Shown here in pieces: positions 1-34,916 of a DNA stretch of 41,273 bases. The notes under the pieces are model-generated. The model saw only the letters and a program-made list of their open reading frames with translations. It was not told the origin of the DNA and ran no database searches. How positions within the stretch are numbered: the stretch's first letter is position 1; each line of letters starts with the position of its first letter. This stretch comes from Escherichia phage vB_EcoS_fTaEco01, in sequence record MT711527.1, one strand, 5' to 3'. Made by a program: the position numbers and the translations under genes.

Positions 1-1251
1 ATGAGTATTCAGCTATCCGCACCGCAGGCACTGTTCCTGAATTGCGGTAACAAATACAAAGCCTATGTCGGCGGCTTCGGCAGCGGAAAGACATTTGTTG
101 GCTGCCTTGACCTGCTTACGTTTATGCTCAAGCATCCAGGTACGCGCCTGGGTTACTTCGGCCCGACATACCCGGCTATCCGTGACATCTTCTACCCAAC
201 ATTTGAGGAAGCCGCTAACCTGCTCGGCCTCGATGTGCTGGTTAAATCTGGCGACAAAGAAGTCGTGGTTACTCGCGGTAAGACGGTGCTCGGTACAGTT
301 ATCTGCCGTTCTATGGATAACCCAGGCTCGATAGTCGGCTTCAAAATCGCTGCTGCGGTCGTGGATGAGCTTGATGTATTGAGCCGTGAGAAAGCTGAGC
401 TGGCGTGGAACAAAATAGTCGCCCGTATGCGTCTGGTTATCCCCGGCGTAACTAACCACATCTCTGTCACCACGACACCGGAAGGGTTCAAGTTCGTCTA
501 CGCCAAGTTCAAAGAGAACCCGACGCCGAGTTACTCGATGGTGCAGGCTTCTACACACGAGAACGCGCGATTCCTGCCGCCTGACTACATTAGCTCACTG
601 ACCGAGACTTACCCCGCGCAACTGATTAACGCGTACCTGAACGGTGAGTTCGTTAACCTGACATCCGGCAGCGTGTATTATGCGTATGACCGTCGCAAGC
701 ACCGCAGCAAAGAGACAATTCAACCGGGCGATACACTGTACATCGGGCAGGACTTCAACGTTACGAAGAACGCCAGCGCCGTGTATGTGCAACGTAAAGA
801 CGGCTGGCACGCGGTGGCAGAACTGAAAGGTCTGTTTGATACGCCGGACACCGTGCGTGTAATTACTGAGAAGTGGAAGTCGCAGGGCCACCGCATAGTC
901 GTTTACCCGGACGCCAGCGGCAAGAACCGCAAGACCAACTCGGCGTCAATCTCAGATATTGCGTTACTCCAGCAGGCCGGTTTCGATGTTCGCGCTAAAT
1001 CCGCCAACCCTCCGGTTAAAGACCGTGTTTTAGCCGTGAATACCGCACTGGAAAAAGGTAAGCTGTGGGTTAATGACCACTTATGCCCCGAGATAGCGAA
1101 GACGCTGGAGCAGCAGGCATACGATGATAACGGAGAGCCAGCTAAAGACGGCATCATTGACCATATGGCGGATGCTCTCGGCTATCCTGTAGTTTACGAG
1201 ATGCCGGTGGTTAAACCAGTAATCAACATCCCGGTGACTTTCGCACTTTAA
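1..1251 (+). CDS. terminase large subunit (ORF begins at window edge; N-terminus may be truncated)
   Basis: 416-aa ORF with Walker A P-loop GGFGSGKT at residues 24-31; first gene of a co-oriented packaging/head string. Confidence 0.75.
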   Translation: MSIQLSAPQALFLNCGNKYKAYVGGFGSGKTFVGCLDLLTFMLKHPGTRLGYFGPTYPAIRDIFYPTFEEAANLLGLDVLVKSGDKEVVVTRGKTVLGTVICRSMDNPGSIVGFKIAAAVVDELDVLSREKAELAWNKIVARMRLVIPGVTNHISVTTTPEGFKFVYAKFKENPTPSYSMVQASTHENARFLPPDYISSLTETYPAQLINAYLNGEFVNLTSGSVYYAYDRRKHRSKETIQPGDTLYIGQDFNVTKNASAVYVQRKDGWHAVAELKGLFDTPDTVRVITEKWKSQGHRIVVYPDASGKNRKTNSASISDIALLQQAGFDVRAKSANPPVKDRVLAVNTALEKGKLWVNDHLCPEIAKTLEQQAYDDNGEPAKDGIIDHMADALGYPVVYEMPVVKPVINIPVTFAL

Positions 1252-1262
1252 GAGGACAACAA

Positions 1263-2756
1263 ATGGTTTCCGCAAACATTAACGCAGGGCAAGGGCAGAA
1301 TGTTAAAACCCGCCACCGCCAGTACGAAGAGTATTTCCCTAAGTGGCAGAAGGTGCGACATGCGCTTTCTGGCGACCTGACATCGTATCTACGTGACGTC
1401 AGTAAGAACGAGCCGGACCCGGTTTACGGTCGCCAGCGTCAGGCTGAATACGAAGCGGGGGCAATTTGCTACAACTTCACCAAGCGAACGCTTTCAGGCA
1501 TGGTCGGCAGCGTAATGCGCAAAGACCCCGAGATGATTATTCCGTCTCAGATGGAATACCTGACCACTAACTGTGACGGGTCGGGCGTTGGCCTGTGGCA
1601 GCACGCACAGGATACTCTGTATGAGATTGATGCTGTTGGTCGCGGTGGCTTGCTGGTTGACGCCCCCGCGGTAGAAGTAGCTACCATGGCAGAGCAAAAC
1701 GAGGGTTTACTAAATCCAACAATCGCTTTCTACACCGCAGAGAATATCATCAACTGGCGTCTCCAGCGCGTCGGGTCTGTTAATCGTGTGGTTATGGTTG
1801 TATTGCGTGAGGAATACGAGTACACCGATGGCGCGGATGAGTTCAGCCCCAACTACGGCGAGCAATACCGCGTCCTTGATATTTTCGAAGGCCAGTATCG
1901 CCAGCGTCTGTACCGCTTTAACCAGAAAGGTGCACTGATGGAAGGTGGCTATATCGAAATATTCCCGAAACTCGGTAATATTCCGGTCGGGGTGATTCCG
2001 TTCACATTCATTGGTGCAGGGAATAACGACTCAACCCCTGACGATGCACCTTTGCTGCCGTTGGCTGAACTTAATATCGGGCACTTCCGCAACAGCGCGG
2101 ACAATGAGGAGTCCAGCTTCGTCGTAGGCCAGCCTACTCTGTTCATCGCCCCCGGTGAGAACATGAGCATGGGACAATGGAAAGAAGCCAACCCTCACGG
2201 AGTGCGTATGGGGTCACGTTCTGGCCATAACATCGGTTACGGCGGCAATGCGTTTCTGGTCCAGGCCAGTGAGAACAACCTAGCCAAGCAGAACATGTTG
2301 GATAAAGAGAACCAGGCAATCCAGATTGGTGCACAGCTTATTACCCCGACGCAGCAAATCACCGCGGAATCGGCACGCCTGCAACGCGGCGCTGATACGT
2401 CCGTTATGGCAACAATCGCACGTAACGTAAGCATGGCGTATACCGATGCGTTGCGCTGGGTCGCGGGTATGCTTGGGATTAGCGACAGCACTGAAATTGA
2501 GTTCAAACTGAACATGGAGTTCTTCCTGCAACCAATGACCGCTCAGGACCGCGCGCAGTGGATGGCGGATATTAACGCGGGCCTGTTACCGGCTACCGCT
2601 TACTATGCTGCGTTGCGTAAGGCGGGGGTAACTGACTGGACAGACGAGGACATTCAGAACGCTATCGAGGATGCGCCTCTGCCATTAGGTGCTGTTGCTC
2701 AGGTGGCTGGGGAGATTCCGCAGTCGGCGCAGCAAAAAGACCCCACCCAGCAGTAA
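1263..2756 (+). CDS. portal protein (positional call)
   Basis: 497-aa ORF directly downstream of terminase with RBS AAGAGG; size and position typical of portal; no diagnostic motif recognised. Confidence 0.6.
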   Translation: MVSANINAGQGQNVKTRHRQYEEYFPKWQKVRHALSGDLTSYLRDVSKNEPDPVYGRQRQAEYEAGAICYNFTKRTLSGMVGSVMRKDPEMIIPSQMEYLTTNCDGSGVGLWQHAQDTLYEIDAVGRGGLLVDAPAVEVATMAEQNEGLLNPTIAFYTAENIINWRLQRVGSVNRVVMVVLREEYEYTDGADEFSPNYGEQYRVLDIFEGQYRQRLYRFNQKGALMEGGYIEIFPKLGNIPVGVIPFTFIGAGNNDSTPDDAPLLPLAELNIGHFRNSADNEESSFVVGQPTLFIAPGENMSMGQWKEANPHGVRMGSRSGHNIGYGGNAFLVQASENNLAKQNMLDKENQAIQIGAQLITPTQQITAESARLQRGADTSVMATIARNVSMAYTDALRWVAGMLGISDSTEIEFKLNMEFFLQPMTAQDRAQWMADINAGLLPATAYYAALRKAGVTDWTDEDIQNAIEDAPLPLGAVAQVAGEIPQSAQQKDPTQQ

Positions 2757-2766
2757 GTTCACATAT

Positions 2767-2787
2767 AGCCCCGAAAGGGGCTTTCTT
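2767..2787 (+). terminator. rho-independent terminator-like hairpin
   Basis: AGCCCC-GAAA-GGGGCT stem-loop followed by TTCTT, immediately after portal stop. Confidence 0.5.
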
Positions 2788-2825
2788 ATAGTATGCTATT
2801 AACTTTAGCGCCACAGGGTTTATCT

Positions 2826-3869
2826 ATGAGCTTACTTACATCACTAATCAGCCACCAGATATGGCTGCAACGCACCGCATCCGGTGAGGTGAAAGACCTC
2901 GCGCCGTTCATTAAGGAGATGCGGGACGAAATCAAACGGCAGGTGCTGCTATTCGGCGACGACGGTCGCAGCACTGCGCGACTGAATAAACTGTTACGTG
3001 ACCTTGAAGAAGCACTGACAGGACTTACTGGTGACTGGCAAACAAAGCTGGCAGAAGACCTCAAGGAACTGGCGGTGTATGAAGCTGAGTGGAACGTAAA
3101 GACCCTGTCCGCCAACGTAGATGCGGAATTTGTTACGCCCACCGCCGAACAGGTGTGGGCCGCTGCTGAGTTTCAGCCATTATCATTGAGTGGCAAGCCA
3201 GTTGATTTCACTAAACTGATGTCAGGTTGGGGTGAAACGGAAGTAGCACGTCTTGTAACCGGCGTTAAGATGGGCTTTGTACAAGGTCAAACAACACGGC
3301 AGATTGTTAAGAATGTAGTAGGCGCCGGTGGGCTGGCTGACATCTCTGAGCGTAACGCCGCTACCGTCATCCGCACCGCGCTGTCTCACGTGTCCAACGA
3401 AGCCCGTAACGAGACGTACCGCCAGAACGACGACATCATCGAGAAGTACGAGTGGGTGTCAACGCTTGACAGCCGCACCAGTACGATTTGCAGGGTCAGA
3501 GACGGGATGACGTGGGAAATTGGTAAGGGGCCGACGCCCCCTGCCCATCCGAACTGCCGGTCGTGCACGGCTCCGGTAATCAGTTCCGAGTTCGACTTCC
3601 TCGATAAAGGCGCAAAACGCGCGGCTAAAGGCGCGGAAGGTGGCACTCAGGTAAGCGTAGACACCACTTACTACGAGTTCCTTAAACAACAACCGGCGTG
3701 GTTTCAGGACCAGGCGCTCGGCCCGGTGCGAGGTAAGATTTTCCGTAACAGCGGTATATCGCCGGAAGAGTTTCGCGTAATATCTGTAGATGGTTTCGGG
3801 AATCCGCTCACGCTTAAGCAGATGGCGGAACTCGATAAACGTGTTGCTGATTATCTGAAAGGGGAATAA
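2826..3869 (+). CDS. head morphogenesis protein (Mu F / SPP1 gp7-like minor head protein)
   Basis: Position after portal; C-terminal region with ICRVRDGMTWEIGKG...HPNCRSC resembles the conserved Cys-containing motif of this family (from memory); ATG 2826 preferred over 2793 because 2793 abuts the upstream terminator. Confidence 0.65.
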   Translation: MSLLTSLISHQIWLQRTASGEVKDLAPFIKEMRDEIKRQVLLFGDDGRSTARLNKLLRDLEEALTGLTGDWQTKLAEDLKELAVYEAEWNVKTLSANVDAEFVTPTAEQVWAAAEFQPLSLSGKPVDFTKLMSGWGETEVARLVTGVKMGFVQGQTTRQIVKNVVGAGGLADISERNAATVIRTALSHVSNEARNETYRQNDDIIEKYEWVSTLDSRTSTICRVRDGMTWEIGKGPTPPAHPNCRSCTAPVISSEFDFLDKGAKRAAKGAEGGTQVSVDTTYYEFLKQQPAWFQDQALGPVRGKIFRNSGISPEEFRVISVDGFGNPLTLKQMAELDKRVADYLKGE

Positions 3870-4330
3870 TGATGGGCTTTTTCAAAGTAACTGACGTACC
3901 GTCTCGTCGCGTAGTCCAGTACGCCCGCGTGTCTGGCTCTGGCGAGAACGTGGTGTTTATTGAAGACGAAAGTGTACTCGGAACACCAGTGGACGATATG
4001 CCGTTTGCGGACAAGACCGGTATTGCGCTGCCAGCGGCAGGTATGCTTTATGAGATTCAGTACCTGGCGGATGCTGGTGATGTGTATTTCTCCGTACAAC
4101 CGCAGGACGCTGAACTGGCAGACGGCAGCGCAAATATCGCTGTCGAAGTTAAGGCGGGCAAAGCACCATATGCGCTGACCTGGTACAAAGACGGGAAGGA
4201 AGTGGTAAACGCCCCGGAAGAGGCTCTGTCTCTGACGGTTAACGCAGTTGGTGAATACTTCGTTAAAGTCACTGATGCAGACGGTATAGAGGCCGTAAGT
4301 AAAGCAGCGAAGGTTACTAAGCCAGAATAA
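3869..4330 (+). CDS. hypothetical protein (possible Ig-like head/decoration protein)
   Basis: 153-aa ORF overlapping upstream stop (TAATG); followed by a strong terminator. Confidence 0.45.
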   Translation: MMGFFKVTDVPSRRVVQYARVSGSGENVVFIEDESVLGTPVDDMPFADKTGIALPAAGMLYEIQYLADAGDVYFSVQPQDAELADGSANIAVEVKAGKAPYALTWYKDGKEVVNAPEEALSLTVNAVGEYFVKVTDADGIEAVSKAAKVTKPE

Positions 4331-4335
4331 ACTGA

Positions 4336-4355
4336 AGCCCCGAAAGGGGCTTTTT
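4336..4355 (+). terminator. rho-independent terminator
   Basis: AGCCCC-GAAA-GGGGCT hairpin followed by TTTTT. Confidence 0.65.
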
Positions 4356-4419
4356 AGTGCCTGTGATTATTCCAGTTATTCCACTCAATTGTAAATGTTG
4401 GAATAAACTATTCGAATAG

Positions 4420-4448
4420 TTGACTTTTCACCAAAAATGTGCTAAGCT
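4420..4448 (+). promoter_or_regulatory. sigma70-like promoter (TTGACT-17 nt-TAAGCT)
   Basis: Hexamers at 4420-4425 and 4443-4448 with 17-nt spacer; the ACTATTCGAATAGT palindrome abuts the -35; near-identical architecture at 34591-34619. Confidence 0.5.
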
Positions 4449-4454
4449 CCACCT

Positions 4455-4650
4455 GAGCTTGTGAAGTATGAACAAGCGACCGCGGCGCGGCAGGTAACGG
4501 AGCCGGACGTTAAGTCCGAGTGTAGTTGCGCTGACGCGTTCGGAAGGGCCATACTCTATTGCTTGTGTAAAAAGTAACTGGTTTACTGAGATTACGCCGT
4601 TTCTATGTTTAAATGATAAGGACTAGCGCCCCGCTTTAAGGCGGGGCTTT
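4455..4650 (+). ncRNA. candidate structured leader / small RNA (copy A of a duplicated element)
   Basis: Region between promoter and hairpin terminator (stem 4628-4634/4641-4647 then TTT); contains the 38-nt core CCTGAGCTTGTGAAGTATGAACAAGCGACCGCGGCGCG (4452-4489) identical to 34623-34660; no conserved ORF. Confidence 0.3.
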
Positions 4651-4671
4651 ACTTATCGAGAAAGGGGAAAC

Positions 4672-5058
4672 ATGAATCTTAAAGCAACTGTCGTAGCGGG
4701 AGCATGTTTCATCATCCTGGCTTACGCACACGGCATCTACCAGTATCGCAGCGGCTGGAACGGAGGCCGGGCGAATCTCGTTTCGCAGCAACAGCAGAAA
4801 GCACAGGCTGAGTTAGCTAAGAAAACACAACGGCAGCAGCAGGATGAATCGAAGGCCGCCGCCGCTGATAACGAAGGCAAGACGAAATCAGAGGTAATCA
4901 CCCGTGAAGTCGTTAAGTACATTAAAACGCCTGGCCGCAGCGTGTGCACTTTTGACCCTGAGCGCGTGCAGCTCAAGTCCCGCGCCGTCGCAAACGCCAA
5001 TTCCATCCCCGGATACGACGATGATGCAGCCGCCGTGCAAACTGGCACTGCCAAGTAA
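4672..5058 (+). CDS. i-spanin (Rz-like)
   Basis: 128 aa; N-terminal hydrophobic segment, Q/A/K-rich coiled-coil-like middle; contains an overlapping out-of-frame lipoprotein ORF (Rz/Rz1 architecture). Confidence 0.55.
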   Translation: MNLKATVVAGACFIILAYAHGIYQYRSGWNGGRANLVSQQQQKAQAELAKKTQRQQQDESKAAAADNEGKTKSEVITREVVKYIKTPGRSVCTFDPERVQLKSRAVANANSIPGYDDDAAAVQTGTAK

Positions 5059-5167
5059 CGACGCGGACGAGGATTTAGCTATTGACGTCCAGAACGCAGA
5101 ATGTGTACGGCAACTGAGACTTAAAGTGTTCATGTTGCAGGATTACGTGAGGAATATTCTGGAATAG
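4904..5167 (+). CDS. o-spanin (Rz1-like outer-membrane lipoprotein), overlapped with i-spanin gene
   Basis: GTG start with GAGGT RBS; signal peptide ending in lipobox LSAC; short proline-rich mature region; starts inside 4672-5058 in another frame and extends past it. Confidence 0.55.
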   Translation: MKSLSTLKRLAAACALLTLSACSSSPAPSQTPIPSPDTTMMQPPCKLALPSNDADEDLAIDVQNAECVRQLRLKVFMLQDYVRNILE

Positions 5168-5246
5168 TTGCCTTGTATGTTGGAATAATTTATTCTTGAC
5201 ATGTAAATCCGGGTGGCCCGGATTCCAACGTCCAGGGGACATACTG

Positions 5247-5873
5247 ATGAGCGAAGAAGTGAAAGACGAAACTATCGAACAACAAGAGACTAAGACCACG
5301 TTTACCAAAGAAGAAGTTGACGCGCTGGTATCCGGTCTTAAAGCTAACAACGAGAAACTCTTGTCTGAAAAGAAAGCTGCCGCCGCTGCCGCGAAAGAAG
5401 CCGCAGATGCGAAGCTGAAAGCCGAACAGGAACGCGCAAAACAGAACGGCGAACTTGAGGCATTCGAGAAAACGTTGCGCAGTCAGTATGAGCCAGTACT
5501 CGCCGAGAAAGACGGTAAGATTAGCAAAATGGCTGAGCGTATCCTCGGCGCAGAACGTAAATCAGTTATCAGCCAGTTGTCTGGCATGTTGATTGATGAG
5601 AGCGCAGCGGATATTATCGCTATGATGGTCAAGACCGAATTTGACGGCGATGACGTTGTGACCAAGTTCACAGGTGCGGACGGTAATGTCATCACCACCG
5701 ACGCAGAGCAATTTAAAAAGTATCTGCGTGAGCACAAAGCATTCTCACATCTGATTAAAGCAGATGCAGCAACCGGCGGCGGGGCTTCCGGTAACAAAAA
5801 TTCTACTGGCGGGGCCGGTGGTACGGACGTAATTCAACAAAAACTTAACGCCAAATACGGCAAACGAGGATAA
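5247..5873 (+). CDS. scaffolding protein (positional/compositional call)
   Basis: Acidic, alanine/lysine-rich coiled-coil-like protein immediately upstream of major capsid gene; ATG 5247 preferred over the TTG at 5196 in the ORF track. Confidence 0.5.
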   Translation: MSEEVKDETIEQQETKTTFTKEEVDALVSGLKANNEKLLSEKKAAAAAAKEAADAKLKAEQERAKQNGELEAFEKTLRSQYEPVLAEKDGKISKMAERILGAERKSVISQLSGMLIDESAADIIAMMVKTEFDGDDVVTKFTGADGNVITTDAEQFKKYLREHKAFSHLIKADAATGGGASGNKNSTGGAGGTDVIQQKLNAKYGKRG

Positions 5874-5879
5874 GAGATT

Positions 5880-6848
5880 ATGGCTCTGTCAGATATGAAG
5901 GTTTATAACGACGATATCGTCGGTACCACTATCGAACTGCTTGGTCAGAAAACTGACCAGTTTAACGCGGCCTCCGGTGGTGCAATTGTACTGTCTACTG
6001 CCTCATGGCGCGGTGATTTCTCCCGTGAGTCTTTCTTTAACCAGATTGCCTCCGCTAAACGCCGCGTTGACCGTTACGCCGCTATCGCGTCTCAGGCAGC
6101 TACCGCGCTGACTCAGGGCGAGCATGTAGGCGTTAAAGTCGCTGGCGGCTTCGGACCGGTACTGTTCGAGCCTGCGCAAATGACCTGGCTGAACGAAGAC
6201 CCGGCAAGCGCGATTCGTGCTATTTCCGAAGGCTTCTCTGACGCACTGTTAGCGGACCAGCTCAACACCGCTGTTGGTGCCGCCGTTGCCGCGGTATCAG
6301 GTCAGACTGCACTGGTTAACGATGTATCCGCGACCGCTGGCTTGTCCCTGAACGTGCTGAACAACAGCCACGCTAAATTCGGCGACCAGTCTCAGCTGCT
6401 GATTACCGACATCATGACCGGTGCTGCTTACCACACGCTGGTAGATAAAGCGCTGACTAACGCAAACCAGCTGTTCGTTGCTGGTAACGTTATGGTTGTC
6501 GATGTTCTCGGCAAGCGTTACGTAATCTCTGACATTCCTGCGCTGTACGAGGCCGGCACTCCGAACAAGACTAAGGTCCTGTCCGTAGTTGCAAACGGCA
6601 TCATCGTTGATAATGCTTCTGACATTATCAGCAACATTGATACCAGCAACGGTAACACCCGCATCCAGACCACCTGGCAGGCAGATTACAGCTTCGGCCT
6701 GAAACTGAAAGGCTATAGCTGGGATGTCGCCAACGGCGGTAAATCTCCGCTGGACGCAGAACTGTTCACCGCGACTAACTGGGACAAAGCTGTTGCCGAG
6801 AACAAGCACACCCTCGGTACTCTGGCAATCGCCGACGCAGACCTGTAA
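5880..6848 (+). CDS. major capsid protein
   Basis: 322-aa ORF following scaffold-like gene and followed by a strong terminator. Confidence 0.65.
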   Translation: MALSDMKVYNDDIVGTTIELLGQKTDQFNAASGGAIVLSTASWRGDFSRESFFNQIASAKRRVDRYAAIASQAATALTQGEHVGVKVAGGFGPVLFEPAQMTWLNEDPASAIRAISEGFSDALLADQLNTAVGAAVAAVSGQTALVNDVSATAGLSLNVLNNSHAKFGDQSQLLITDIMTGAAYHTLVDKALTNANQLFVAGNVMVVDVLGKRYVISDIPALYEAGTPNKTKVLSVVANGIIVDNASDIISNIDTSNGNTRIQTTWQADYSFGLKLKGYSWDVANGGKSPLDAELFTATNWDKAVAENKHTLGTLAIADADL

Positions 6849-6867
6849 CACGGTTAGTAGTAAAAAC

Positions 6868-6889
6868 AAAGGGGCTTCGGCCCCTTTTT
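6868..6889 (+). terminator. rho-independent terminator
   Basis: AAAGGGGC-TTCG-GCCCCTTTTT immediately after capsid gene stop. Confidence 0.65.
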
Positions 6890-6905
6890 ACTAGGAGAAA
6901 TTAAA

Positions 6906-7073
6906 GTGGAAATTAAATACGTACCAATGCCAATTACCATCGAGCAGAAGCGCGAGTATAACCGTCAGGGGTTCCGTGTGGTAGATGCTCGTTTCGCACC
7001 AGAAGGCACCGTGGTAGAATCGGCTAAAGAAGAGACACCACGCCGCCAGCGCCGGGCGAAATCAGAGGAATAA
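6906..7073 (+). CDS. hypothetical small protein (55 aa, GTG start)
   Basis: AGGAG RBS 8 nt upstream of GTG; fills the gap between terminator and next gene; not in the >=60-aa ORF track. Confidence 0.3.
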   Translation: MEIKYVPMPITIEQKREYNRQGFRVVDARFAPEGTVVESAKEETPRRQRRAKSEE

Positions 7074-7076
7074 TTT

Positions 7077-7589
7077 ATGCCGCTAATCGTGGAAGATGGG
7101 TCGATAGTACCTGATGCCGACAGTTACGTTAGTCTGGCCGACGCCCGCGCGTTAGCGGCTAATTACGGTCTTGTGTTGCCGGCAGACGATACCGCCGCAG
7201 AGGTGGCCCTGCGCAACGGGGCTACTTATGTCGGGCTTGCAGAACCTCAGATGTGCGGGCGTCGCGTATCCGCTGAACAGTCTCTGGCGTACCCACGTAC
7301 AGGAACAACACTAAACGGCTTCACCGTAGCGGATAATGTTATCCCGTCGCAGTTAATCCGGGCACAAGTAATCGCTGCGATTACGTATGGTGCGGGTACT
7401 GATGTTCGGGCTAACTCAGATGGGCGTTCCGTGCAGACTGAGCGTGTTGAGGGTGCGGTAACAGTGACATACTTCAACAACGGCAACAGTGGCGCCACAA
7501 CCGCTATTACCGCTGCGGACGACGCATTACGCCCGTTACTGTGTGGTGGTCTTAACAATGGCTTCTCGTTTAATGTGTACCGGGGTTAA
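7077..7589 (+). CDS. head-tail connector / head completion protein (positional)
   Basis: 170-aa ORF between capsid and tail genes. Confidence 0.4.
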   Translation: MPLIVEDGSIVPDADSYVSLADARALAANYGLVLPADDTAAEVALRNGATYVGLAEPQMCGRRVSAEQSLAYPRTGTTLNGFTVADNVIPSQLIRAQVIAAITYGAGTDVRANSDGRSVQTERVEGAVTVTYFNNGNSGATTAITAADDALRPLLCGGLNNGFSFNVYRG

Positions 7590-7591
7590 AA

Positions 7592-7768
7592 ATGGCGAAG
7601 ACTAAATCTGAGATATTTACCCTTATAGGGCAGGAGTTACCCGACAACACGACGGGGCTTATCACTCCGGCCAAGCCGCGCGGCGTATATCCGCAAGTTG
7701 CTACCGTAACCGCATGGGGTACAGCACCATCCGCATTACTGGTTATTTCGAGACTGGAGGCCGCCTGA
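7592..7768 (+). CDS. hypothetical small protein (58 aa)
   Basis: ATG 2 nt after upstream stop; co-oriented with module; competes with an antisense ORF 7570-7851 that I consider spurious. Confidence 0.3.
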   Translation: MAKTKSEIFTLIGQELPDNTTGLITPAKPRGVYPQVATVTAWGTAPSALLVISRLEAA

Positions 7769-7862
7769 TGAATAAGTTCACATGTGGTGTAGTTTTTGGT
7801 TTTCTTACCGCGGTAGTCTTGCACAGTTACGGTGTTCTTTTGACGCTGCAAGAGGTGCTAAA

Positions 7863-8222
7863 ATGAGCACCGCTTTCAGTAAACGTATGCAAGGCGTGGG
7901 TACGCACCTGCTAACCAAATTCGGTAGCACGGTATCTCTGATTCGCGCTGGTTCAAAAGTATGGGATGAAGTTCTCGGTGAGTACGTCTGGTCTGCGGAT
8001 GAAGTGTTGCCGTTGAAGGCCGTTCCGGTTCCGGTAAACGCGGGACTGGTAAACGGTACGACGATTCAGGCTGGCGACATGATTGTTAAAGCCGATTACA
8101 GCGTCGTTCCGAAGATGGAAGACAAGGTGCAATTCGGCGGCGAGCAATGGTCCATCGTAGCTATTGAGAAGAAGATGGTTAACGATGACGTCGTGGCGTA
8201 CTTTATTCAGGTGAGAAAATGA
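7863..8222 (+). CDS. head-tail joining protein (positional)
   Basis: ATG 7863 with AAGAGGTG RBS preferred over upstream start of ORF-track 7782. Confidence 0.45.
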   Translation: MSTAFSKRMQGVGTHLLTKFGSTVSLIRAGSKVWDEVLGEYVWSADEVLPLKAVPVPVNAGLVNGTTIQAGDMIVKADYSVVPKMEDKVQFGGEQWSIVAIEKKMVNDDVVAYFIQVRK

Positions 8223-8614
8223 GTTTCGCGCTCGATGTCTCTAAGTTCGTGGAAAAGGCGAAGAAGAACCCTGAGAAGGTGATGCGTCAGGTGTCTATCA
8301 AGCTGTTTTCCGCTATTATAAAGGCGAGTCCGGTAGACACGGGCCGCTTTCGTATGAACTGGATGGCATCTGGCGGTACTCCTGCTTCCGGGATTACGGA
8401 CGCTAAGGATAAATCAGGAAACACAGCAACCGGAAACGCTACGAGTTTCGTGCTGAAAGCCGCTGACTGGCATGAGTTCACGCTGACAAATAATCTGCCG
8501 TATGCGCAACGGCTGGAGTATGGTTGGTCGCAACAGGCGCCAGCCGGGGTTGTCAGGACTAATGTGTCTCGCTTCCAGCAACTCATTAACGAAGAAGCCA
8601 ACAAGGTGAAATGA
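8219..8614 (+). CDS. tail component, HK97 gp10-like
   Basis: 131 aa with DTGRFRMNW motif resembling the DTGxLRxS signature of the HK97 gp10 family (from memory); ATGA overlap with neighbours. Confidence 0.5.
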   Translation: MSFALDVSKFVEKAKKNPEKVMRQVSIKLFSAIIKASPVDTGRFRMNWMASGGTPASGITDAKDKSGNTATGNATSFVLKAADWHEFTLTNNLPYAQRLEYGWSQQAPAGVVRTNVSRFQQLINEEANKVK

Positions 8615-9027
8615 TGGGCTACTTTGAGGACTTAACAAAAGCGTTCGATGTTCCGCTGGTAGCCTTCGGAACCGCCAACGGCATCAAGGTCGCGCTTGAA
8701 AACATCGACGCGCCGACGTCAACCGATACGCCATATCTGGCAAGTTACATGTTACTGGCGGATACCGAGCAAGCAGATTTGTTCTTCACGGAACAACGCG
8801 CGGGTGTTTATCAGGTCGACATTAACTACGCATCGGTGAAAGGTAGCGCGCCAATCAATAAAATGGCAGACTTACTTAACACGGCATTCAAAGCAGGTAA
8901 GTCATTTTCTCGTAACGACATCTGCGCCGAGGTTCAATCGGTTAGCCTGGGGCCGCTGATTGTAGAAAACGGAAGGGCCAAACGACCATTGTCAATTAAC
9001 TTTATTGCATTCACCAAGAGGCTGTGA
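8611..9027 (+). CDS. tail completion/terminator-like protein (positional)
   Basis: 138-aa ORF translationally coupled between gp10-like gene and major tail gene. Confidence 0.4.
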   Translation: MMGYFEDLTKAFDVPLVAFGTANGIKVALENIDAPTSTDTPYLASYMLLADTEQADLFFTEQRAGVYQVDINYASVKGSAPINKMADLLNTAFKAGKSFSRNDICAEVQSVSLGPLIVENGRAKRPLSINFIAFTKRL

Positions 9028-9029
9028 AT

Positions 9030-10196
9030 ATGGCTACAACTCCTTTTAAGGGCGCGAATACTGCGCAATTCTATGTGGCAGAAACTACCCCTGGCGTAAC
9101 ACCGACTAACCCGGTCTGGTCGCCATTGCGTAACACAGGTGGCGTTCCTGCCATTACCCGCGACACGCTGACCTCCAACGAACTGGACGGCAGCCGTGAA
9201 ACTACATCCATCCGCACCGGTAACAAACAGGTTAGCGGTGAATACGCGATCGAGCTTAGCTCGAAAAGCCAGGATGACTGGCTGGCTGGTGCTTTAGGCT
9301 CTACGTGGCAATCCGGTAGTTCTCTGACCGGGCTATCAATTACCGTCGCGCCTGCAGACAAGACCTTTACCCGTGCCGAAGGTAGCTTTATTTCTGACGG
9401 CGTTGAAGTGGGCGACCTGATTGCGTTTACCGACTTAACCGGTGACAACGCAAAACCGTTTATCGTAACTGCAGTAGAGGCGCTGGTAGTGACCGGGGCG
9501 GGTATCCAGCATACCCTGACCACAGAGACAGTAACTACCGCCGCTAAGACAGGGGATAAACTGGAAACGGGAAGCCAGTGCAAGACGTTCTCTATTCTCA
9601 CCTGGTACAAAGGCCAGTGCGGCGGGACTGACGCGTACACACTAACCAAAGGCGTGGAAGTTTCTGGTTTTACCATCGAACAGGCTGTTAACGCTATGGT
9701 AACTGGCAGCTTCCCGTTCATCGGTCGCAGTCAGGAGATTCTCACCACGCAGCCGTCTGGTTCTGATTTCTCCTCTGTTACGTTTGGTGACGAGCCATTC
9801 TCCTCGGTCGATGTTTCTGTGTTCGACGGTTCTACGCCGTTGCGTTGCGACAGCCTGACCATCACCAACGACAACAGCGCGTCCGCACAGTTCGAACTCG
9901 GCAACACTAACGTAGCGTTTGTGGAGCGTAGCCGAGCAGCTAACACCTTCTCCATCTCCGGTAAGCTGTACGACATGGCGATGATTCAGAAGTTTATCAA
10001 CGAGCAGCAGGTGGAGATTAACTCTATTCTGGCTGGGGTAAACGGGGCTATGTCTTTCAGTTTGAAACGTGCAGAACTTACGGCGGTTACACCTGAGATT
10101 GGAGGACCTGAGTCAATCACTCAGTCTATTGAAGGCCAGGCTACTGGCAACCAGTACCAGTCGTCTATTGTTATTCAGCGTATCACATACGCATAA
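9030..10196 (+). CDS. major tail protein (positional)
   Basis: About 389 aa, Thr/Ser/Gly-rich; AGAGG RBS before ATG 9030; followed by a strong terminator. Confidence 0.5.
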   Translation: MATTPFKGANTAQFYVAETTPGVTPTNPVWSPLRNTGGVPAITRDTLTSNELDGSRETTSIRTGNKQVSGEYAIELSSKSQDDWLAGALGSTWQSGSSLTGLSITVAPADKTFTRAEGSFISDGVEVGDLIAFTDLTGDNAKPFIVTAVEALVVTGAGIQHTLTTETVTTAAKTGDKLETGSQCKTFSILTWYKGQCGGTDAYTLTKGVEVSGFTIEQAVNAMVTGSFPFIGRSQEILTTQPSGSDFSSVTFGDEPFSSVDVSVFDGSTPLRCDSLTITNDNSASAQFELGNTNVAFVERSRAANTFSISGKLYDMAMIQKFINEQQVEINSILAGVNGAMSFSLKRAELTAVTPEIGGPESITQSIEGQATGNQYQSSIVIQRITYA

Positions 10197-10200
10197 AACT

Positions 10201-10226
10201 AAGGCCCCGTTTGGGGCCTTTTTCTT
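10201..10226. terminator. bidirectional rho-independent terminator between convergent genes
   Basis: AAGGCCCC-GTTT-GGGGCCTT hairpin flanked by A-run and T-run; nearly identical to the terminator at 22727-22750. Confidence 0.65.
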
Positions 10227-10779
10227 ACAAACCTAATCTTAAAGCAATGCCTATAGCGTTCGATTTAACGTAACCCGGTATGATGTAGGTGTCATAATCT
10301 TTTACACCATCAATATCGTACAGGTAACCGCGGCTGTCCCCTTCAAACGTATGGCCGTCTCTGTGCAAGCGGACGATTCTCACATCATGCCCCGCGGCAA
10401 CGATAGGGGCTACTTCGCTGGCGAACCCGCCATCAGACACCACAAAAACTTCGTCGCCGTCGGGCAAGTTTCCGGCAAGATACTTACCGAAATAATCATC
10501 ACCGAATACCGGTTTAATGAATTGCTCGGAAATGGCAATCATGAACTGACGCCGAGACAACCCGTTAAGGAAACCCTCTGGCTTTTCTTTCCGCGCCCGG
10601 TCGTCGTAGCCGTCGAGAAACTCGCGGTAAGCATCCTGGCCTAACGCAGCCATAGCAATATTGAACATCGGATTCTTGAAACTGGCGACACCCTTCGCAA
10701 AGCCCATTTCTACCAGCGCCCTAGCAAGTGTGTCTTTCCCGCAGCCCGCAGGACCATTAAGAATAATTACCTTAGCCAT
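10225..10779 (-). CDS. P-loop kinase (polynucleotide 5'-kinase-like or dNMP-kinase-like)
   Basis: Walker A GPAGCGKDT at residues 8-16; N-terminus (KVIILNGPAGCGKDTLARAL) resembles the T4 Pnk kinase P-loop region as recalled from memory; 1-nt overlap with upstream phosphatase gene. Confidence 0.55.
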   Translation of the reverse strand: MAKVIILNGPAGCGKDTLARALVEMGFAKGVASFKNPMFNIAMAALGQDAYREFLDGYDDRARKEKPEGFLNGLSRRQFMIAISEQFIKPVFGDDYFGKYLAGNLPDGDEVFVVSDGGFASEVAPIVAAGHDVRIVRLHRDGHTFEGDSRGYLYDIDGVKDYDTYIIPGYVKSNAIGIALRLGL

Positions 10780-11264
10780 TATTTATCACTCCCATGTGGT
10801 TTTAAGTGTGTAGAGTTCCCGTTACAGTCGTATTCAGTAACTGCGTGAGTGGTTATGCCGAGTTCGCGGAAATGCTTTATTACCGCTGGAGAGTCGTCGA
10901 ATGCACACAAGATTCTCTCCGGCCCAATAGCACGCAACACCTCTTCTTTAATTACGATGTCTTTTCTGTTGTCGTGTTTGCTGCGCATGATTAACTGATA
11001 AAATTCGACGCGGTGGCGCTGCAACCACATTCTGGTTTCTTTTTCCGCGTCATCACTACGGCCTGTTAAGATAATAACGGCATAGCGACGATTAAGGGCG
11101 TTACACAGTTCGATGTTATCTTTAATGGGTGCATCGTCTTTGCACGCCATGTTAAATGGTTTCCACGCCCAGGTTTCGCCGTAGTTATCTTTCGGCAGCA
11201 GGTGTAAACGATGAGTACCATCTGCCAATGTCCCGTCTAAATCGAAAATCACAATATCTTTCAT
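10779..11264 (-). CDS. HAD-family phosphatase resembling the 3'-phosphatase domain of T4 polynucleotide kinase-phosphatase
   Basis: DxDGT motif (IVIFDLDGTLA), VIILTGRS, RKDIVIKEEV and FDDS segments that track the order of T4 Pnkp phosphatase motifs as recalled from memory. Confidence 0.65.
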   Translation of the reverse strand: MKDIVIFDLDGTLADGTHRLHLLPKDNYGETWAWKPFNMACKDDAPIKDNIELCNALNRRYAVIILTGRSDDAEKETRMWLQRHRVEFYQLIMRSKHDNRKDIVIKEEVLRAIGPERILCAFDDSPAVIKHFRELGITTHAVTEYDCNGNSTHLKPHGSDK

Positions 11265-12391
11265 CCAAGCATCTCCGGTGAAATAGTTAAACGTGCGACC
11301 TCGCCATATTCGGCGCTATAAGTAATTACGTTTGCACTGCGGCCCGACATCCACCCACCGCGGGAGGCATATGCATCTTTAGCCGCGAGAGTGCGGTGTT
11401 GCTCAACAATCATGTTACGGCTTTCTACAATCTTTTGGTGGTGCAGGTGACCCACGTGGGCGTAGCTGTAAACACTCTCGCCGAACGCTTTGCGGAACTT
11501 GGCAATCATAACCGGTTCGATAGCGTCGAATCGTGCTTTATGCCCATGATGGAAGAACAGCGTCGTTTTGCCGTGTTGCACCATCTTGTAAACATCCGGC
11601 GACGTATCGACGAACACACGCGGTTCATTGTCGTACAGCGTACTAAACATCTCAGCTAACCAAATCATTCCGCTTTCGTCGTGGTTACCTTGCACGATAA
11701 GCAAGCGAACATTTTTATGTTTAACGAGAGCCATATCAATGACACGGCGGACCATACGAATCATGTAGCGTACAAGTTTCTGATAGCGGGTGTCAGCGTC
11801 AAGAACATGACCACTGGCAGGTGTAACGGCGTCCAGACTATCGAAATGCGCAAGGTCGCCCAGCAGATTAATAACTCCTGTTCCGGCATCCGGTGCTTTC
11901 TGGAACGCTGCGTCGAACCAGCGGGAGAACAGGTCTTCCGCAATCTTCATGTCCCAGTCGTCGCCGCTCTCGTCAGCCCAGGCCAGCATACCGAGATGGA
12001 AATCAGACACAGTGTAAAGGTTGAGTAGCTTGTCGTCTCGTTTGGCGCGAACGGCTTTAACAGGTGCAACTGGTGTAATCTCCGACTTCATGCCTTCGAT
12101 TACGGCTTTCATCAATTCAACCTGACGTTCGGCATCGGTGTCGGTCTTAACCCATTGCAACTTGGTGTTGCCAAACTCATCCACAAGTGACGACGTCCCT
12201 TTAATCTTGTAGCCGTCCGGCACAAGGTGGCTAACGTCACGCCCGTGGCCTACGCCTTTCTTCGCAAGTTTCGCTTTACGGATACGAATAACGCGGTCTG
12301 AGATGCCGTATTTACGGGCGATGTCGATATTCTTCATACCGGCGTTCAATTCTTCCTGTAACTGTTCGTCGGTTATTTTCTTCCTGGCCAT
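11261..12391 (-). CDS. calcineurin-like metallophosphoesterase with N-terminal helix-turn-helix domain
   Basis: Metallophosphoesterase motifs in order: SDFH, GDLAHFD, GNHD, HHGH, GHLHH; basic HTH-like N-terminus; GAGGA RBS. Confidence 0.7.
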   Translation of the reverse strand: MARKKITDEQLQEELNAGMKNIDIARKYGISDRVIRIRKAKLAKKGVGHGRDVSHLVPDGYKIKGTSSLVDEFGNTKLQWVKTDTDAERQVELMKAVIEGMKSEITPVAPVKAVRAKRDDKLLNLYTVSDFHLGMLAWADESGDDWDMKIAEDLFSRWFDAAFQKAPDAGTGVINLLGDLAHFDSLDAVTPASGHVLDADTRYQKLVRYMIRMVRRVIDMALVKHKNVRLLIVQGNHDESGMIWLAEMFSTLYDNEPRVFVDTSPDVYKMVQHGKTTLFFHHGHKARFDAIEPVMIAKFRKAFGESVYSYAHVGHLHHQKIVESRNMIVEQHRTLAAKDAYASRGGWMSGRSANVITYSAEYGEVARLTISPEMLG

Positions 12392-12428
12392 GCTTATTCC
12401 TCGTGTTTAGGATTTGTCCTATACTAGC

Positions 12429-12635
12429 TCACTTCTCTTTGACATTCGAGTTGCACGCCCAGATTAAGATAAATACCCACGGCAGCAGAACCCAACCAAG
12501 AAACAGATTAGCCATGAATATCGCTAACTTCGCTTTATGGTTACGGAAGTACGCAACCAGGAAAGGCGCGAAATAAGCGAGCAGTGCAAACAGAATTAAG
12601 GAAACTGGTAAACTTGACATTTTAAACCCCTTCAT
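12429..12635 (-). CDS. superinfection immunity-like small membrane protein (Imm-family)
   Basis: 68 aa, two hydrophobic helices; pattern AYFAPF..AYFRNH...AIF.ANLFLGW....W.F.LIWA matches the conserved core of superinfection-immunity family proteins (from memory). Confidence 0.65.
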   Translation of the reverse strand: MKGFKMSSLPVSLILFALLAYFAPFLVAYFRNHKAKLAIFMANLFLGWVLLPWVFILIWACNSNVKEK

Positions 12636-12650
12636 TGTTGGTGTAAGTGA

Positions 12651-12679
12651 ATAGTACCCTATTATATTGGGGTGTGCAA
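12651..12679 (-). promoter_or_regulatory. promoter (TTGCAC-17 nt-TACTAT) for the minus-strand accessory cassette
   Basis: Reverse complement gives TTGCAC-ACCCCAATATAATAGGG-TACTAT; nearly identical to plus-strand promoters at 34888-34916 and 36181-36209. Confidence 0.5.
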
Positions 12680-12787
12680 GTAATGTGATAGAATAAGTTT
12701 GCGCCTAGTGTCGCACACGAAAAGCGGGTGGTTCCCGTCTGGCGCATTTATCGTTAACCTGTAACCTCTTAACCAAAGGATTAAAGA

Positions 12788-13204
12788 ATGAAACTTTCTG
12801 ATTTTTATTTCGAAGAGAAAGCACTGGTAGGCAAGAAGATGCCCATTCTGCTGCCAAACGGCGAAGACTCCGGTGAATGGCTTAACGTTGTAAGTCCCGA
12901 TGCGGATGTCGCCGTTAAAGCGGGGCGTGCTTTCATTATTGCGTACCGTCGCGGGTTGGCGCGTTTCGAAGAACTGGAAAAAGCCGCCAAAGAATCCGGC
13001 GACTATACTGAATATAACCTGGCTATTAACGAACTGGCGGAAGACCTCAACCGGCAACTCGCGGCAGAAGTCGTAAACGGCTGGAGCTTTGATGAGCCTT
13101 TCTCTAAAGAAGCATTTAACAAATTGCTGGACCAGTTCAAGGCATTAGGCACACAGGTAGCAGCGTTCCATAACGCTGAGCGCAAAGCATTACAGGAAAA
13201 GTAG
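12788..13204 (+). CDS. tail assembly chaperone (G-like)
   Basis: 138-aa acidic ORF directly upstream of the tape measure gene; AAGGA RBS. Confidence 0.5.
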   Translation: MKLSDFYFEEKALVGKKMPILLPNGEDSGEWLNVVSPDADVAVKAGRAFIIAYRRGLARFEELEKAAKESGDYTEYNLAINELAEDLNRQLAAEVVNGWSFDEPFSKEAFNKLLDQFKALGTQVAAFHNAERKALQEK

Positions 13205-13569
13205 ACGCGCTGTACAGGTTCGCCACCTATGAGTTTGTGGATAAGCATAAAATCAGAGAGTTTGATTCTATAGCCGACGGACACGAACAGGCGCTTATCG
13301 CGATGGGTGTAATCGATAAGAAAAAACGTGCAGCGCGACGGGGTGGGCCAGAATGCCCGCCCCTTTTTATATCCACCTTCGAGACGTACTGCGACATTAA
13401 GTTTACGCGACACGTGCGCGAGGACGCTGTAGTATTGTTCGCAAGAGAATCCGTTACGTGGCAAGACCTGAAAGCCTATCTCGATGTTACGCAAAAACAG
13501 CTTAGCCTGTTCGAGATAGACATTATCATGGGCTTAGAAGCAATCTTTGAAGGTAGAAATCATGGCTGA
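13180..13569 (+). CDS. tail assembly chaperone extension (GT-like), probably expressed by -1 frameshift from 12788-13204
   Basis: Frame -1 relative to the upstream ORF is open from 13180; no ATG or RBS of its own (ORF track uses GTG 13237); slippery-like G_GAA_AAG at 13195-13201; ends overlapping tape measure start. Confidence 0.4.
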   Translation, partial: AQSITGKVDALYRFATYEFVDKHKIREFDSIADGHEQALIAMGVIDKKKRAARRGGPECPPLFISTFETYCDIKFTRHVREDAVVLFARESVTWQDLKAYLDVTQKQLSLFEIDIIMGLEAIFEGRNHG

Positions 13570-25344: not shown

Positions 25345-25629
25345 TTAACTATAATAGCTCGCTATTAGGTCGTCAACCTGTTTAAACGAACCAACGATAA
25401 AAACATTTGCACCGCGTTTACGCATCCGCTCGTGCTCACGTATCTGGTGCGGGTCTGGCTTCGTGTTTTCGTCTTTCTTAACCTCGACGAACCATATGAC
25501 GCCGCCAGGGAGAATTACCAGCAGGTCGGGAGCGCCGGAGCGCCCCTCGTAGGAGAGCTTACGAACGAGGCCGCCGATGGCCTCGAATCGCTCTTTTGCG
25601 TATTTCTGTATTTTGCCTTCCGGTGTCAT
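25345..25629 (-). CDS. VRR-NUC domain nuclease
   Basis: PD-(D/E)xK-type core GAPDLLVIL...VIWFVEVKK; ATG 25629 preferred over TTG 25644. Confidence 0.6.
   Translation of the reverse strand: MTPEGKIQKYAKERFEAIGGLVRKLSYEGRSGAPDLLVILPGGVIWFVEVKKDENTKPDPHQIREHERMRKRGANVFIVGSFKQVDDLIASYYS
25348..25376 (-). promoter_or_regulatory. internal promoter (TTGACG-17 nt-TATAGT)
   Basis: Reverse complement TTGACG-ACCTAATAGCGAGCTAT-TATAGT; lies in the 3' end of the VRR-NUC gene. Confidence 0.45.
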
Positions 25630-28901: not shown

Positions 28902-28930
28902 ACTATAATAGCTAACTATTCAGGTGTCAA
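28902..28930 (-). promoter_or_regulatory. internal promoter (TTGACA-17 nt-TATAGT)
   Basis: Reverse complement TTGACA-CCTGAATAGTTAGCTAT-TATAGT just upstream of the SSB-like gene. Confidence 0.5.
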
Positions 28931-31307: not shown

Positions 31308-31336
31308 ACTATAATAGCGAACTATTCACTTGTCAA
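31308..31336 (-). promoter_or_regulatory. promoter (TTGACA-17 nt-TATAGT) for leftward operon
   Basis: Reverse complement TTGACA-AGTGAATAGTTCGCTAT-TATAGT. Confidence 0.5.
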
Positions 31337-34590: not shown

Positions 34591-34619
34591 TTGACTTTTA
34601 CTAAGAAATATGGTAAGCT
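34591..34619 (+). promoter_or_regulatory. rightward sigma70-like promoter (TTGACT-17 nt-TAAGCT)
   Basis: Same hexamers and spacing as the promoter at 4420-4448. Confidence 0.5.
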
Positions 34620-34625
34620 CAGCCT

Positions 34626-34825
34626 GAGCTTGTGAAGTATGAACAAGCGACCGCGGCGCGCGGCAGGCGAAACGAGCACGTGTAACGTGTGGAGTGAGGC
34701 TCGCTGGCGCGTTTGGGAGGCCCAAAGTCTATTGTAATTCCCGCCTAATTATCTAAGTTACTGATTTGCCGTAGGTTAGAACCGCCAGCTCACTCACTCA
34801 CTCTTGGTGCCTTCGGCACCACGTT
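34626..34825 (+). ncRNA. candidate structured leader / small RNA (copy B of duplicated element)
   Basis: 38-nt core at 34623-34660 identical to 4452-4489; short hairpin GGTGCC-TTC-GGCACC at 34806-34820; no conserved ORF. Confidence 0.3.
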
Positions 34826-34887
34826 CGTTTCGTTTCGCTCGCTACCCCCTTAAACGAAAGAATCACAACGGCAACGTAACTAATCTC

Positions 34888-34916
34888 TTGCACACCCCAA
34901 CATAATAGGATACTAT
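34888..34916 (+). promoter_or_regulatory. promoter (TTGCAC-17 nt-TACTAT) for rightward small-gene cluster
   Basis: TTGCAC-ACCCCAACATAATAGGA-TACTAT. Confidence 0.5.

Follow-up and report, generated by a model that had tools for sequence, protein, structure and literature searches.

The 41.3-kb stretch analysed here, called the window below, is the 41,273-nucleotide sequence record MT711527.1 of Escherichia phage vB_EcoS_fTaEco01, and its gene order is that of a complete Kagunavirus genome (subfamily Guernseyvirinae). The element of interest, a structured leader RNA that we call copy A, lies with its promoter on the + strand in a gap ahead of the spanin genes; a second version, copy B, follows a second promoter in the rightward early region. 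In annotated relatives the copy A gap is flanked by a Hoc-like head-decoration gene and an i-spanin/o-spanin pair, after which come the scaffold and then the major capsid genes, and in some of their records a small hypothetical protein is annotated within the gap. The i-spanin open reading frame (ORF) of the window starts at 4672, and the records of K1ind1 and Shashou label its counterpart a spanin. The promoter of copy B is divergent from a - strand gene (34301-34555) for a helix-turn-helix (HTH) protein, which matches transcriptional-regulator PHROGs.

A promoter and leader present twice in the window

The first-pass annotation had described copy A as a strong sigma-70-like promoter followed by a structured RNA and a terminator-like hairpin before the spanin genes, and this layout is borne out. 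The promoter (TTGACT-17-TAAGCT, 4420-4448) is present, its strength being judged by its match to the consensus; it is the sole strong + strand promoter in 1-12600, and the position of its -10 hexamer places the transcript start at ~4455/4456. Direct reading of the sequence confirms a 38-nt run shared without mismatch by 4452-4489 and 34623-34660, and the 37-nt core has exactly two matches in the window at three or fewer mismatches, against 0.00 expected from 100 shuffles. The core is thus duplicated as claimed, but the similarity extends beyond its 38 nt, the two copies sharing 79% identity over ~145 nt. The promoters are themselves part of a 70-nt direct repeat (4420-4489 and 34591-34660, 87% identity) with the same hexamers and spacing, and a covariance model of the element matches both 4454-4564 (121.7 bits) and 34625-34737 (85.7 bits, E 1.6e-21). 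The unit shared by A and B is the promoter plus ~110 nt of transcript. A reported 2-nt indel between the copies is real and falls just after the 38-nt run (GCGGCGCGGCAGG in A, GCGGCGCGCGGCAGG in B), and farther downstream both leaders hold a short module of the form ACUGA..AUU..GCCGU (ACTGAGATTACGCCGT at 4585-4600 and ACTGATTTGCCGT at 34760-34772). According to the covariance model neither the window nor any of the relatives has a third copy, the maximum being two per contig.

Fold, coding capacity and distribution of the leader RNA

The 401 bases around copy A match 180 phage records, with an identity of 94-99.5% in nearly every case, from Escherichia/Salmonella phages of the K1G/K1ind type (genus Kagunavirus). 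For homologues of the element, the neighbouring head-morphogenesis protein was used as query against a phage collection and IMG/VR, yielding 35 distinct sequences; a first pattern scan of IMG/VR (ACCGCGG..TTYGGRAGG) had returned mostly chance matches. RNAalifold on a plain MAFFT alignment recovers the closing helix, in which ACCGCGG pairs with UUCGG, and one of its column pairs is CG in 12, UA in 9 and AU in 3 sequences. From compensatory changes seen by eye we drew a five-helix structure, model R1, to which all hits were re-aligned and their pairs counted. Among 38 distinct sequences, 90.7% of 984 cells are standard pairs, compared with 29-40% when the partners are slid by 1-3 columns, both-sided changes occur in 12 of 28 pairs (77 cells), and none of 500 shuffles reached the observed covariation score, figures that are somewhat inflated because the alignment was fitted to the model. 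In this alignment the first helix has 91% of its cells paired and shows UA to UG changes, while helices 2-5 are 74-98% paired and contribute 11 of the pairs that change on both sides. The same architecture emerges from RNAalifold and, independently, from folding the single sequences of copies A and B and of the Jersey homologue. Covariance and structure modelling across relatives, which the first-pass annotation had named as a check, yields covarying helices and a conserved fold: the element is an RNA structure composed of a 5'-terminal hairpin (P1), a long irregular stem (P2/P3) and a conserved tail (Table 1).

Table 1. Positions of the leader elements, promoters and associated signals in the window
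Feature	Position	Strand	Remarks
Upstream repeats of promoter A	4367..4406	+	TTATTCC 4367-4373 and 4376-4382; inverted GGAATAA 4400-4406
Promoter A	4420..4448	+	TTGACT 4420-4425, 17-nt spacer, TAAGCT 4443-4448; consensus match
P1, 5'-terminal hairpin	4457..4477	+	GCUUGU/ACAAGC, loop GAAGUAUGA; 2-3 nt from the probable 5' end
P2/P3, long irregular stem	4480..4543	+	RNAalifold, model-based alignment and single-sequence folds
P2 closing pairs	C4480-G4543, C4481-G4542, G4482-C4541	+	C4483 bulged
P2 G.U pairs	G4484.U4540, G4485.U4539	+
P2 helix	4486-4489 with 4535-4538	+	CGCG with CGCG
P2 helix	4491-4493 with 4531-4533	+	CAG with CUG
P2 helix	4494-4498 with 4525-4529	+	GUAAC with GUUGC
Internal loop of stem		+	GGAGC / AGUGUA; purine-rich, conserved
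Apical hairpin	4504-4508 with 4514-4518	+	CGGAC, loop GUUAA, GUCCG; variable part
Conserved unpaired tail	4544..4561	+	AAGGGCC AUACUCUAUUG
Spacer module	4585..4600	+	ACUGAGAUUACGCCGU; inside conserved spacer 4562-4627
Terminator-like hairpin	4628..4650	+	GCCCCGCU-UUAA-GGCGGGGC plus UUUACUUAU; 21 nt upstream of spanin start codon
Promoter B	34591..34619	+	TTGACT, 17 nt, TAAGCT
Copy B element	34625..34737	+	P1 identical to A; P2 with 2-nt insertion
Copy B downstream leader	34760..34838	+	module ACUGAUUUGCCGU 34760-34772, (CUCA)n 34789-34803, hairpin 34805-34821
Second promoter behind copy B	34888..34916	+	TTGCAC, 17 nt, TACTAT; overlaps palindrome AATAGGATACTATT
Promoter/operator family TTGACA..AATAGnnnnCTATTATAGT	12650-12672, 34898-34927	+
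Promoter/operator family, further members	25348-25376, 28902-28930, 31308-31336	-
Promoter/operator family, further member	31356-31378

Sequence variation follows this fold. P1 is replaced by GCUUGUGA-GAUA-UCGCAAGC in copy B of AV104 and in L145, and by ACGCU-UUC-AGCGU in Jersey. In copy A a GA linker separates P1 from the long stem, which is closed by CCG(C)GG/UUCGG and also holds a G.A mismatch and a bulged G; the apical hairpin, GGAC/GUCC in copy A, becomes GGUGC/GCACU, GUGCC/GGCAC or GGGCGU/ACGCCC elsewhere. Copy B has a different apical hairpin (ACGUG-UAA-CGUGU) and the tail GGGAGGCCCAAAGUCUAUUG, and in the B-copy variants of six other Kagunaviruses the helices are kept by compensatory changes, for example CGCG/CGCG versus UGCG/CGCA. 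The tail pattern CGGAAGGG(C/U)C..UCUAUUG is common to the A and B copies of Kagunavirus and to Jerseyvirus, and in Cornell-like loci AAGGGCC likewise follows a CCGC/GCGG helix. Over 29 Kagunavirus loci, mean identity to the window is 0.935 per column for promoter A and 0.926 for the element, whose changes are concentrated in the covarying stems; the spacer reaches 0.98 and the distal hairpin 0.978, against 0.869 at third codon positions of the spanin gene. The spacer module recurs in the leader of copy B and in both Jersey leaders. In the single-sequence fold of copy A, AGUAUG of the P1 loop is predicted to pair with CAUACU of the tail. This pairing was rejected: copy B is unable to form it, and the position after A4553 varies among C, G, U and A without compensation.

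The fold, and not a peptide, is what the copies have in common; the first-pass annotation, pointing to the indel, had placed the conservation at the nucleotide level. Starting from the only ATG (4468), the reading frame is 9 codons long in copy A and 32 in copy B. Most other Kagunaviruses differ by 1 nt (GGGCAGG versus GGCAGG) and so read 36 codons in another frame, the version annotated as a hypothetical protein in Shashou. No reading frame or peptide is conserved among copy A, copy B and the other Kagunaviruses; because indels of 1-2 nt shift and truncate every frame while the helices covary, we regard the element as non-coding. An upstream mini-ORF formed by a Shine-Dalgarno-like GGAAGGG and the UUG of CUAUUG was also rejected as a conserved feature, as it would span 1-19 codons and the UUG is CUG in some Jersey variants.

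Conservation in related phages, which the first-pass annotation had expected of the core, extends for the element over two genera. The copy A position is occupied in every Kagunavirus examined, and a diverged form, with 268 matching records, is found in Jerseyvirus, where promoter, closing helix, internal-loop motif and tail are retained, as is the position of P1; blastn detects no link between the Kagunavirus and Jersey versions. Copy B is present in many, but only some, Kagunaviruses, with variants of its own, and a different structured leader takes its position in Jersey and some Kagunaviruses. Several hundred genomes in the phage collection carry the leader. No host or prophage copy was found in 5,426 complete E. 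coli genomes, and the 54 pattern matches among GTDB species representatives are scattered over unrelated taxa as expected by chance, none of them credible; the element is therefore confined to these virulent phages. The sole match in a plasmid collection, CP088689.1 (44 kb), was submitted as an E. coli plasmid; it holds both copies and is evidently a Kagunavirus genome. Likewise, phage SHAK7858 (L209, OR594183.1), filed under Autographiviridae/Kayfunavirus, has a Kagunavirus copy-B leader; both records look like database mislabels.

Beyond the two genera, Cornell-like, Tsm2-like and other IMG/VR leaders share at most P1, the CCGC/GCGG helix and the AAGGGCC tail, and with model E values of 0.6-1.7 and ambiguous folds they were not counted as members. 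In Vibrio and Pseudomonas phages whose capsid genes are related, either there is no room for such a leader at this position or the gene order differs. More distant IMG/VR relatives (L175, L177, L181, L182, L187, L188 and L202) fill the 300-400 nt before the spanin gene with long, highly structured leaders of quite different kinds; these include complementary purine-rich and pyrimidine-rich tracts, and the tail CAUCGGGGAUAGUCUAUUCAG of L188 and L202 resembles that of the element. The late-operon leader thus seems to be an exchange hotspot for structured RNA modules.

Predicted terminators and promoters around the two leaders

The distal hairpin of the copy A leader reads GCCCCGCT-TTAA-GGCGGGGC with tail TTTACTTATC in its DNA form (4628-4647) and is the top terminator-like match on the + strand of 1-13000. 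Its 8-bp stem has seven GC pairs and is followed by an imperfect T tract (UUUACUUAU; UUAGCGUAU in Jersey), and it is kept by compensatory changes, one pair being C-G in the window, A-U in Shashou and G-C in Jersey. The terminator assigned here by the first-pass annotation therefore stands as a GC-rich stem-loop with a T-rich tail in the window, but not as a canonical terminator in the relatives. A switch in which P2 would act as antiterminator to this hairpin was considered and rejected, since by eye the alternative pairing is not conserved in Jersey. Behind copy B the corresponding hairpin, UGGUGCC-UUC-GGCACCA, is followed by CGUUCGUUUCGUUUCG, a poor U tract. The (CTCA)n microsatellite just upstream of it (34789-34803) ranges from ~2.5 to 6 units among closely related phages; this C-rich, G-poor tract could be a Rho loading site or a slippage hotspot.

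Other + strand terminators of the late region are predicted at 2767 (AGCCCCGAAAGGGGCU-UUCUUAU), 4335, 6868 (AAAGGGGCUUCGGCCCCUUUUU, strong and directly after the capsid gene) and 10201, and no recognisable promoter follows those at 2767, 4335 and 6868. In the tail-chaperone region of the tail operon a further hairpin (13340-13363; GGGGTGGGCCAGAATGCCCGCCCC, then TTTTTAT) probably lies within coding sequence (ORF 13237-13569) and may serve transcription attenuation or be linked to the chaperone frameshift.

The two leader promoters differ in their surroundings. TTATTCC/GGAATAA repeats centred ~65 nt upstream of the start site of promoter A recur in the same arrangement ahead of the Jersey counterpart of this promoter and in IMG/VR loci of the Cornell-like group, and direct reading found none upstream of copy B; they are a possible regulator-binding site or UP-like region specific to the late promoter A. 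Copy B, for its part, is followed by a second promoter, placed between it and the first early-right gene (ATG 34951, in ORF 34942-35136), so that two classes of transcript, with and without the element, would enter the same genes. This promoter belongs to a repeated AATAGnnnnCTATTAT family, and the palindrome/promoter unit of that family is found again at the head of the tail operon and of three operons that run leftward; in its TTGACA..AATAGnnnnCTATTATAGT form the family precedes the early-right genes, the tail operon and the leftward operons for replication. An earlier report on a related phage described this consensus as repeated 'phage promoters' and called it a 'phage RNA polymerase promoter' (PMC9825357); despite that label, no RNA polymerase gene was seen in these phages. 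With its palindrome AATAG-N4-CTATT the family points to a regulator that binds as a dimer, perhaps one of the two HTH proteins (34301-34555, - strand; 31401-31616, + strand). On this sequence evidence the genome appears to have two promoter classes, one of them marked by the element. A third promoter with TTGACT (38993-39021; 17 nt, TATATT) lacks the element. It is situated between the endolysin gene and a run of small genes leading to terminase, and its leader is short and contains a small hairpin. The early-right region also holds a perfect 23-nt tandem direct repeat (TCCGTATAACTGACCGCAGGCTT twice, 1 nt between, 35348-35394), for which an iteron-like or a protein-binding site are possibilities.

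Relation to known systems and candidate functions

The first-pass annotation had suggested a put-like RNA among its candidates. The analogy holds in layout and fails as homology. HK022 putL and putR were located by the primers and numbering given in PMC9378689. A putL+putR nhmmer profile recovers both HK022 sites (E 1e-20 and 1e-16) and gives no match better than E 5 in the window and Jersey, with nothing at 4450-4570 or 34620-34740; blastn-short returns only chance 10-12-mers, and model R1 has no match in HK022. Rfam has no match at gathering thresholds over the whole window, and at E of 5 or below three loci with copies A and B give only one chance small nucleolar RNA match, elsewhere in the locus. 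Like put, the element occurs in two copies per genome, each just past a major promoter and before terminators, here terminator-like hairpins; it is a non-coding, folded nascent RNA with two stem-loop units, bulges and internal loops; like putL it starts a few nt from the 5' end of the transcript (PMC9378689); and it belongs to a phage that uses the host polymerase and has no recognisable antiterminator protein among the 30 small ones scanned. It differs in length (~110 nt, against ~70 nt for put), in combining a small 5' hairpin with one long stem without sign of the put triple helix, and in its carriers, which are virulent Guernseyvirinae where put is found in lambdoid temperate phages. In HK022, put suppresses both pausing and termination in cis by way of the beta' zinc-binding domain and needs no phage protein; mutants of rpoC in that domain are known to block put.

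Protein-dependent systems offer partial parallels. As in the lambda PR'-qut-6S RNA-tR' region, a constitutive-looking promoter would produce an untranslated transcript of ~195 nt that ends at a terminator-like site just before late (lysis and structural) genes; lambda 6S RNA is 194 nt long. Lambda, however, uses the DNA-binding Q protein and a sigma-dependent pause, and the structure of its leader is no signal, whereas the helices of the element covary. With lambda and P22 nut sites and their N proteins the element has in common a putative RNA signal in the leaders of two operons, upstream of terminators or terminator-like sites; unlike them, its leaders have no boxA-like sequence, no adjacent small boxB-type hairpin and no detected N-like protein. 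A search for boxA (YGCUCUUUAACA-like) at up to three mismatches found nothing in 4449-4671 or 34620-34941, and boxA-like sequences are as frequent in the window as expected by chance (61 versus 61.6). A PHROGs scan of 30 small ORFs identified holins, endolysin, two HTH regulators and many families of unknown function, and none of the 30 proteins matches an N or Q antiterminator family. The RfaH ops sequence (GGCGGTAGnnTG, read on the non-template strand) has no + strand match at up to two mismatches in either leader, and the ops-like count of the window, 48 against 35 expected, is near chance. A separate motif, ACGGCA(G/A)C, occurs in the window at 34866-34876, in L005 at 9885-9985 and 20547-20560, and in the L171, L173, L200 and L203 leaders; it is thus found in leaders of several Guernseyvirinae clades, and three times in the early leader of Tsm2. 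It was rejected as an ops site: it agrees with 9 of 11 positions of the core GCGGTAGCGTG, but C replaces the critical T6.

Two further groups of leaders bear on function. EAR of B. subtilis, Tn916 canT and pLS20 conAn2 are cis-acting structured leader RNAs that act processively on terminators (PMC11658703), and the element resembles them as a large structured leader in long operons of mobile elements; they differ in their Gram-positive hosts and unrelated sequences, and EAR was unmatched in the Rfam scans. The stabilising 5' stem-loops of the ompA type and the RNase III hairpins of the T7 R1.1 type need little primary-sequence conservation. The element shares with them a hairpin 2-3 nt from the 5' end and a long irregular stem in the untranslated leader of a highly expressed operon, and differs in keeping invariant paired and unpaired motifs across genera.

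From its sequence and position, the element most plausibly controls the extent or the stability of transcription of the downstream operon. Our tentative preference is for a cis-acting leader that promotes read-through of downstream terminator-like hairpins by RNA polymerase, with or without a cofactor. Transcripts from two host-type (sigma-70) promoters would begin with the element, followed by the rest of a long untranslated leader. As the transcript emerges, its 5' hairpin and then its long stem would fold, and the folded RNA would act in cis and condition the host polymerase to pass the terminator-like hairpin that follows, and possibly later terminators of the same operon. It might do so unaided or through a cofactor of host or phage origin on the conserved unpaired tail, copy A serving the operon of spanin, scaffold, capsid and head-completion genes and copy B the rightward operon through the lysis and packaging genes. 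We favour read-through because the element directly follows two promoters and precedes terminator-like hairpins, because predicted terminators lie inside the operons behind it, and because the tandem promoters at copy B recall early versus antiterminated transcription in lambdoid phages, with put, EAR and canT as precedents. Cis-acting RNAs that make polymerase terminator-resistant are established in HK022 put (PMC9378689) and in EAR and Tn916 canT (PMC11658703). The RNA-level selection, the constraint on the whole leader, the retention of the distal hairpin from Kagunavirus to Jerseyvirus and the lack of Q or N family matches among the 30 small proteins agree with this reading. Several observations weigh against it. 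The U tract after copy A is weak, and weaker in Jersey, and the hairpin is missing in Serratia phage Tsm2, so the presumed target of read-through may not be a terminator. The tail operon, which has an operator-type promoter and no element, also contains a strong terminator-like site (13340-13363), so terminators within operons are not specific to those led by the element. The folding energy of single sequences is modestly below that of shuffles (z -2.0 for A, -0.5 for B), the element has neither sequence or profile similarity to put nor an Rfam match, the many phage ORFs of unknown function leave room for an antiterminator protein, and a hairpin always at the extreme 5' end fits an mRNA-stabilising leader equally well. 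A bolder version of the proposal is unlikely: that the element represents a new class of protein-independent RNA which binds the emerging E. coli/Salmonella RNA polymerase and renders it terminator-resistant, a put analogue that would have arisen independently in virulent siphoviruses, with the closing helix and the AAGGGCC tail as the polymerase-contacting surface.

That the element is a leader for mRNA stability or processing is conceivable, if on balance somewhat unlikely. Its 5' hairpin would shield the mRNA from 5'-end-dependent decay (RppH/RNase E), and the stem and distal hairpin would be sites of RNase III or RNase E processing or protection, together setting the half-life and translation of the late mRNA. 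P1 indeed lies 2-3 nt from the probable 5' end in every homologue, promoter and element move as one cassette, and P2/P3 forms ~22 bp interrupted by internal loops, in overall shape much like an RNase III substrate; the distal hairpin keeps its structure where the U tract is lost, which suits this function better than termination, and distant relatives have other long structured leaders at the same position. It leaves unexplained, however, the strict conservation of ACCGCGG, UUCGGAAGGGCC, UCUAUUG and the spacer, and, since ~320 nt and a further promoter separate copy B from its first gene, the element would be missing from many of the transcripts that cover those genes. We consider it rather improbable that the leader is instead a nut-like site, loading a phage (or host) RNA-binding protein for timed read-through that keeps the late genes off until the protein accumulates. 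The layout supports this as it does cis-acting read-through, the conserved unpaired tail and spacer module look protein-binding rather than structural, a constitutive-looking promoter before late genes would need a timing device, and many early ORFs have no known function; yet neither leader has a boxA-like sequence (the window's count being at chance), the 30 small proteins include no N- or Q-like match, and the first gene behind copy B, as translated, encodes a protein that is not rich in arginine.

It is doubtful, too, that A and B are two paralogous small RNA genes, whose transcripts (~195 nt and 210-230 nt) would end at the hairpins and act in trans through the conserved tail while late genes were expressed by leakage only. 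Promoter, folded RNA and terminator-like hairpin do make up a complete small-RNA gene, the genes behind copy B have a separate promoter, and the tail, being conserved and single-stranded, might serve as a seed; small RNAs that arise as terminated leader transcripts are known in other phages. Against this, no target of the tail was found in the phage genome on either strand at up to three mismatches apart from the site itself, the hairpins of relatives lack U tracts, and promoter A is the only recognisable promoter of the capsid operon, so efficient termination there would starve the phage of its most abundant proteins. A signal at the DNA level, either a regulator site or a sigma-dependent pause or loading site of the lambda Q/qut type with the RNA fold incidental, is very improbable because the helices covary. 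The identity of A and B does peak from -35 to +35, and AAGTAT (4464-4469) fits the weak -10-like NANNAT discussed for putL (PMC9378689); but compensatory changes affect four helices out to +90, AV104-B, L145 and Jersey have lost the hexamer, and the 30 small proteins include none that is Q-like.

We therefore describe a duplicated RNA motif that is supported by covariation, is absent from Rfam and is a member of no known family; judged by its sequence, it would be a structured cis-regulatory leader of a familiar kind, conserved in Kagunavirus and Jerseyvirus. Phages of these two genera are among those most often isolated for therapy and biocontrol of E. coli and Salmonella, and our literature search returned nothing relevant on their transcription, antitermination or transcriptomes. 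Public genomes annotate the element as nothing or as a spurious 'hypothetical protein', and it deserves annotation as an RNA feature. If the RNA modifies polymerase, it would be a second enterobacterial example of a mechanism known almost only from HK022, compact, functional in E. coli and accompanied by a natural panel of compensatory variants. Even if it controls only the fate of the mRNA, the element would mark a control point for the expression of the capsid and lysis genes.

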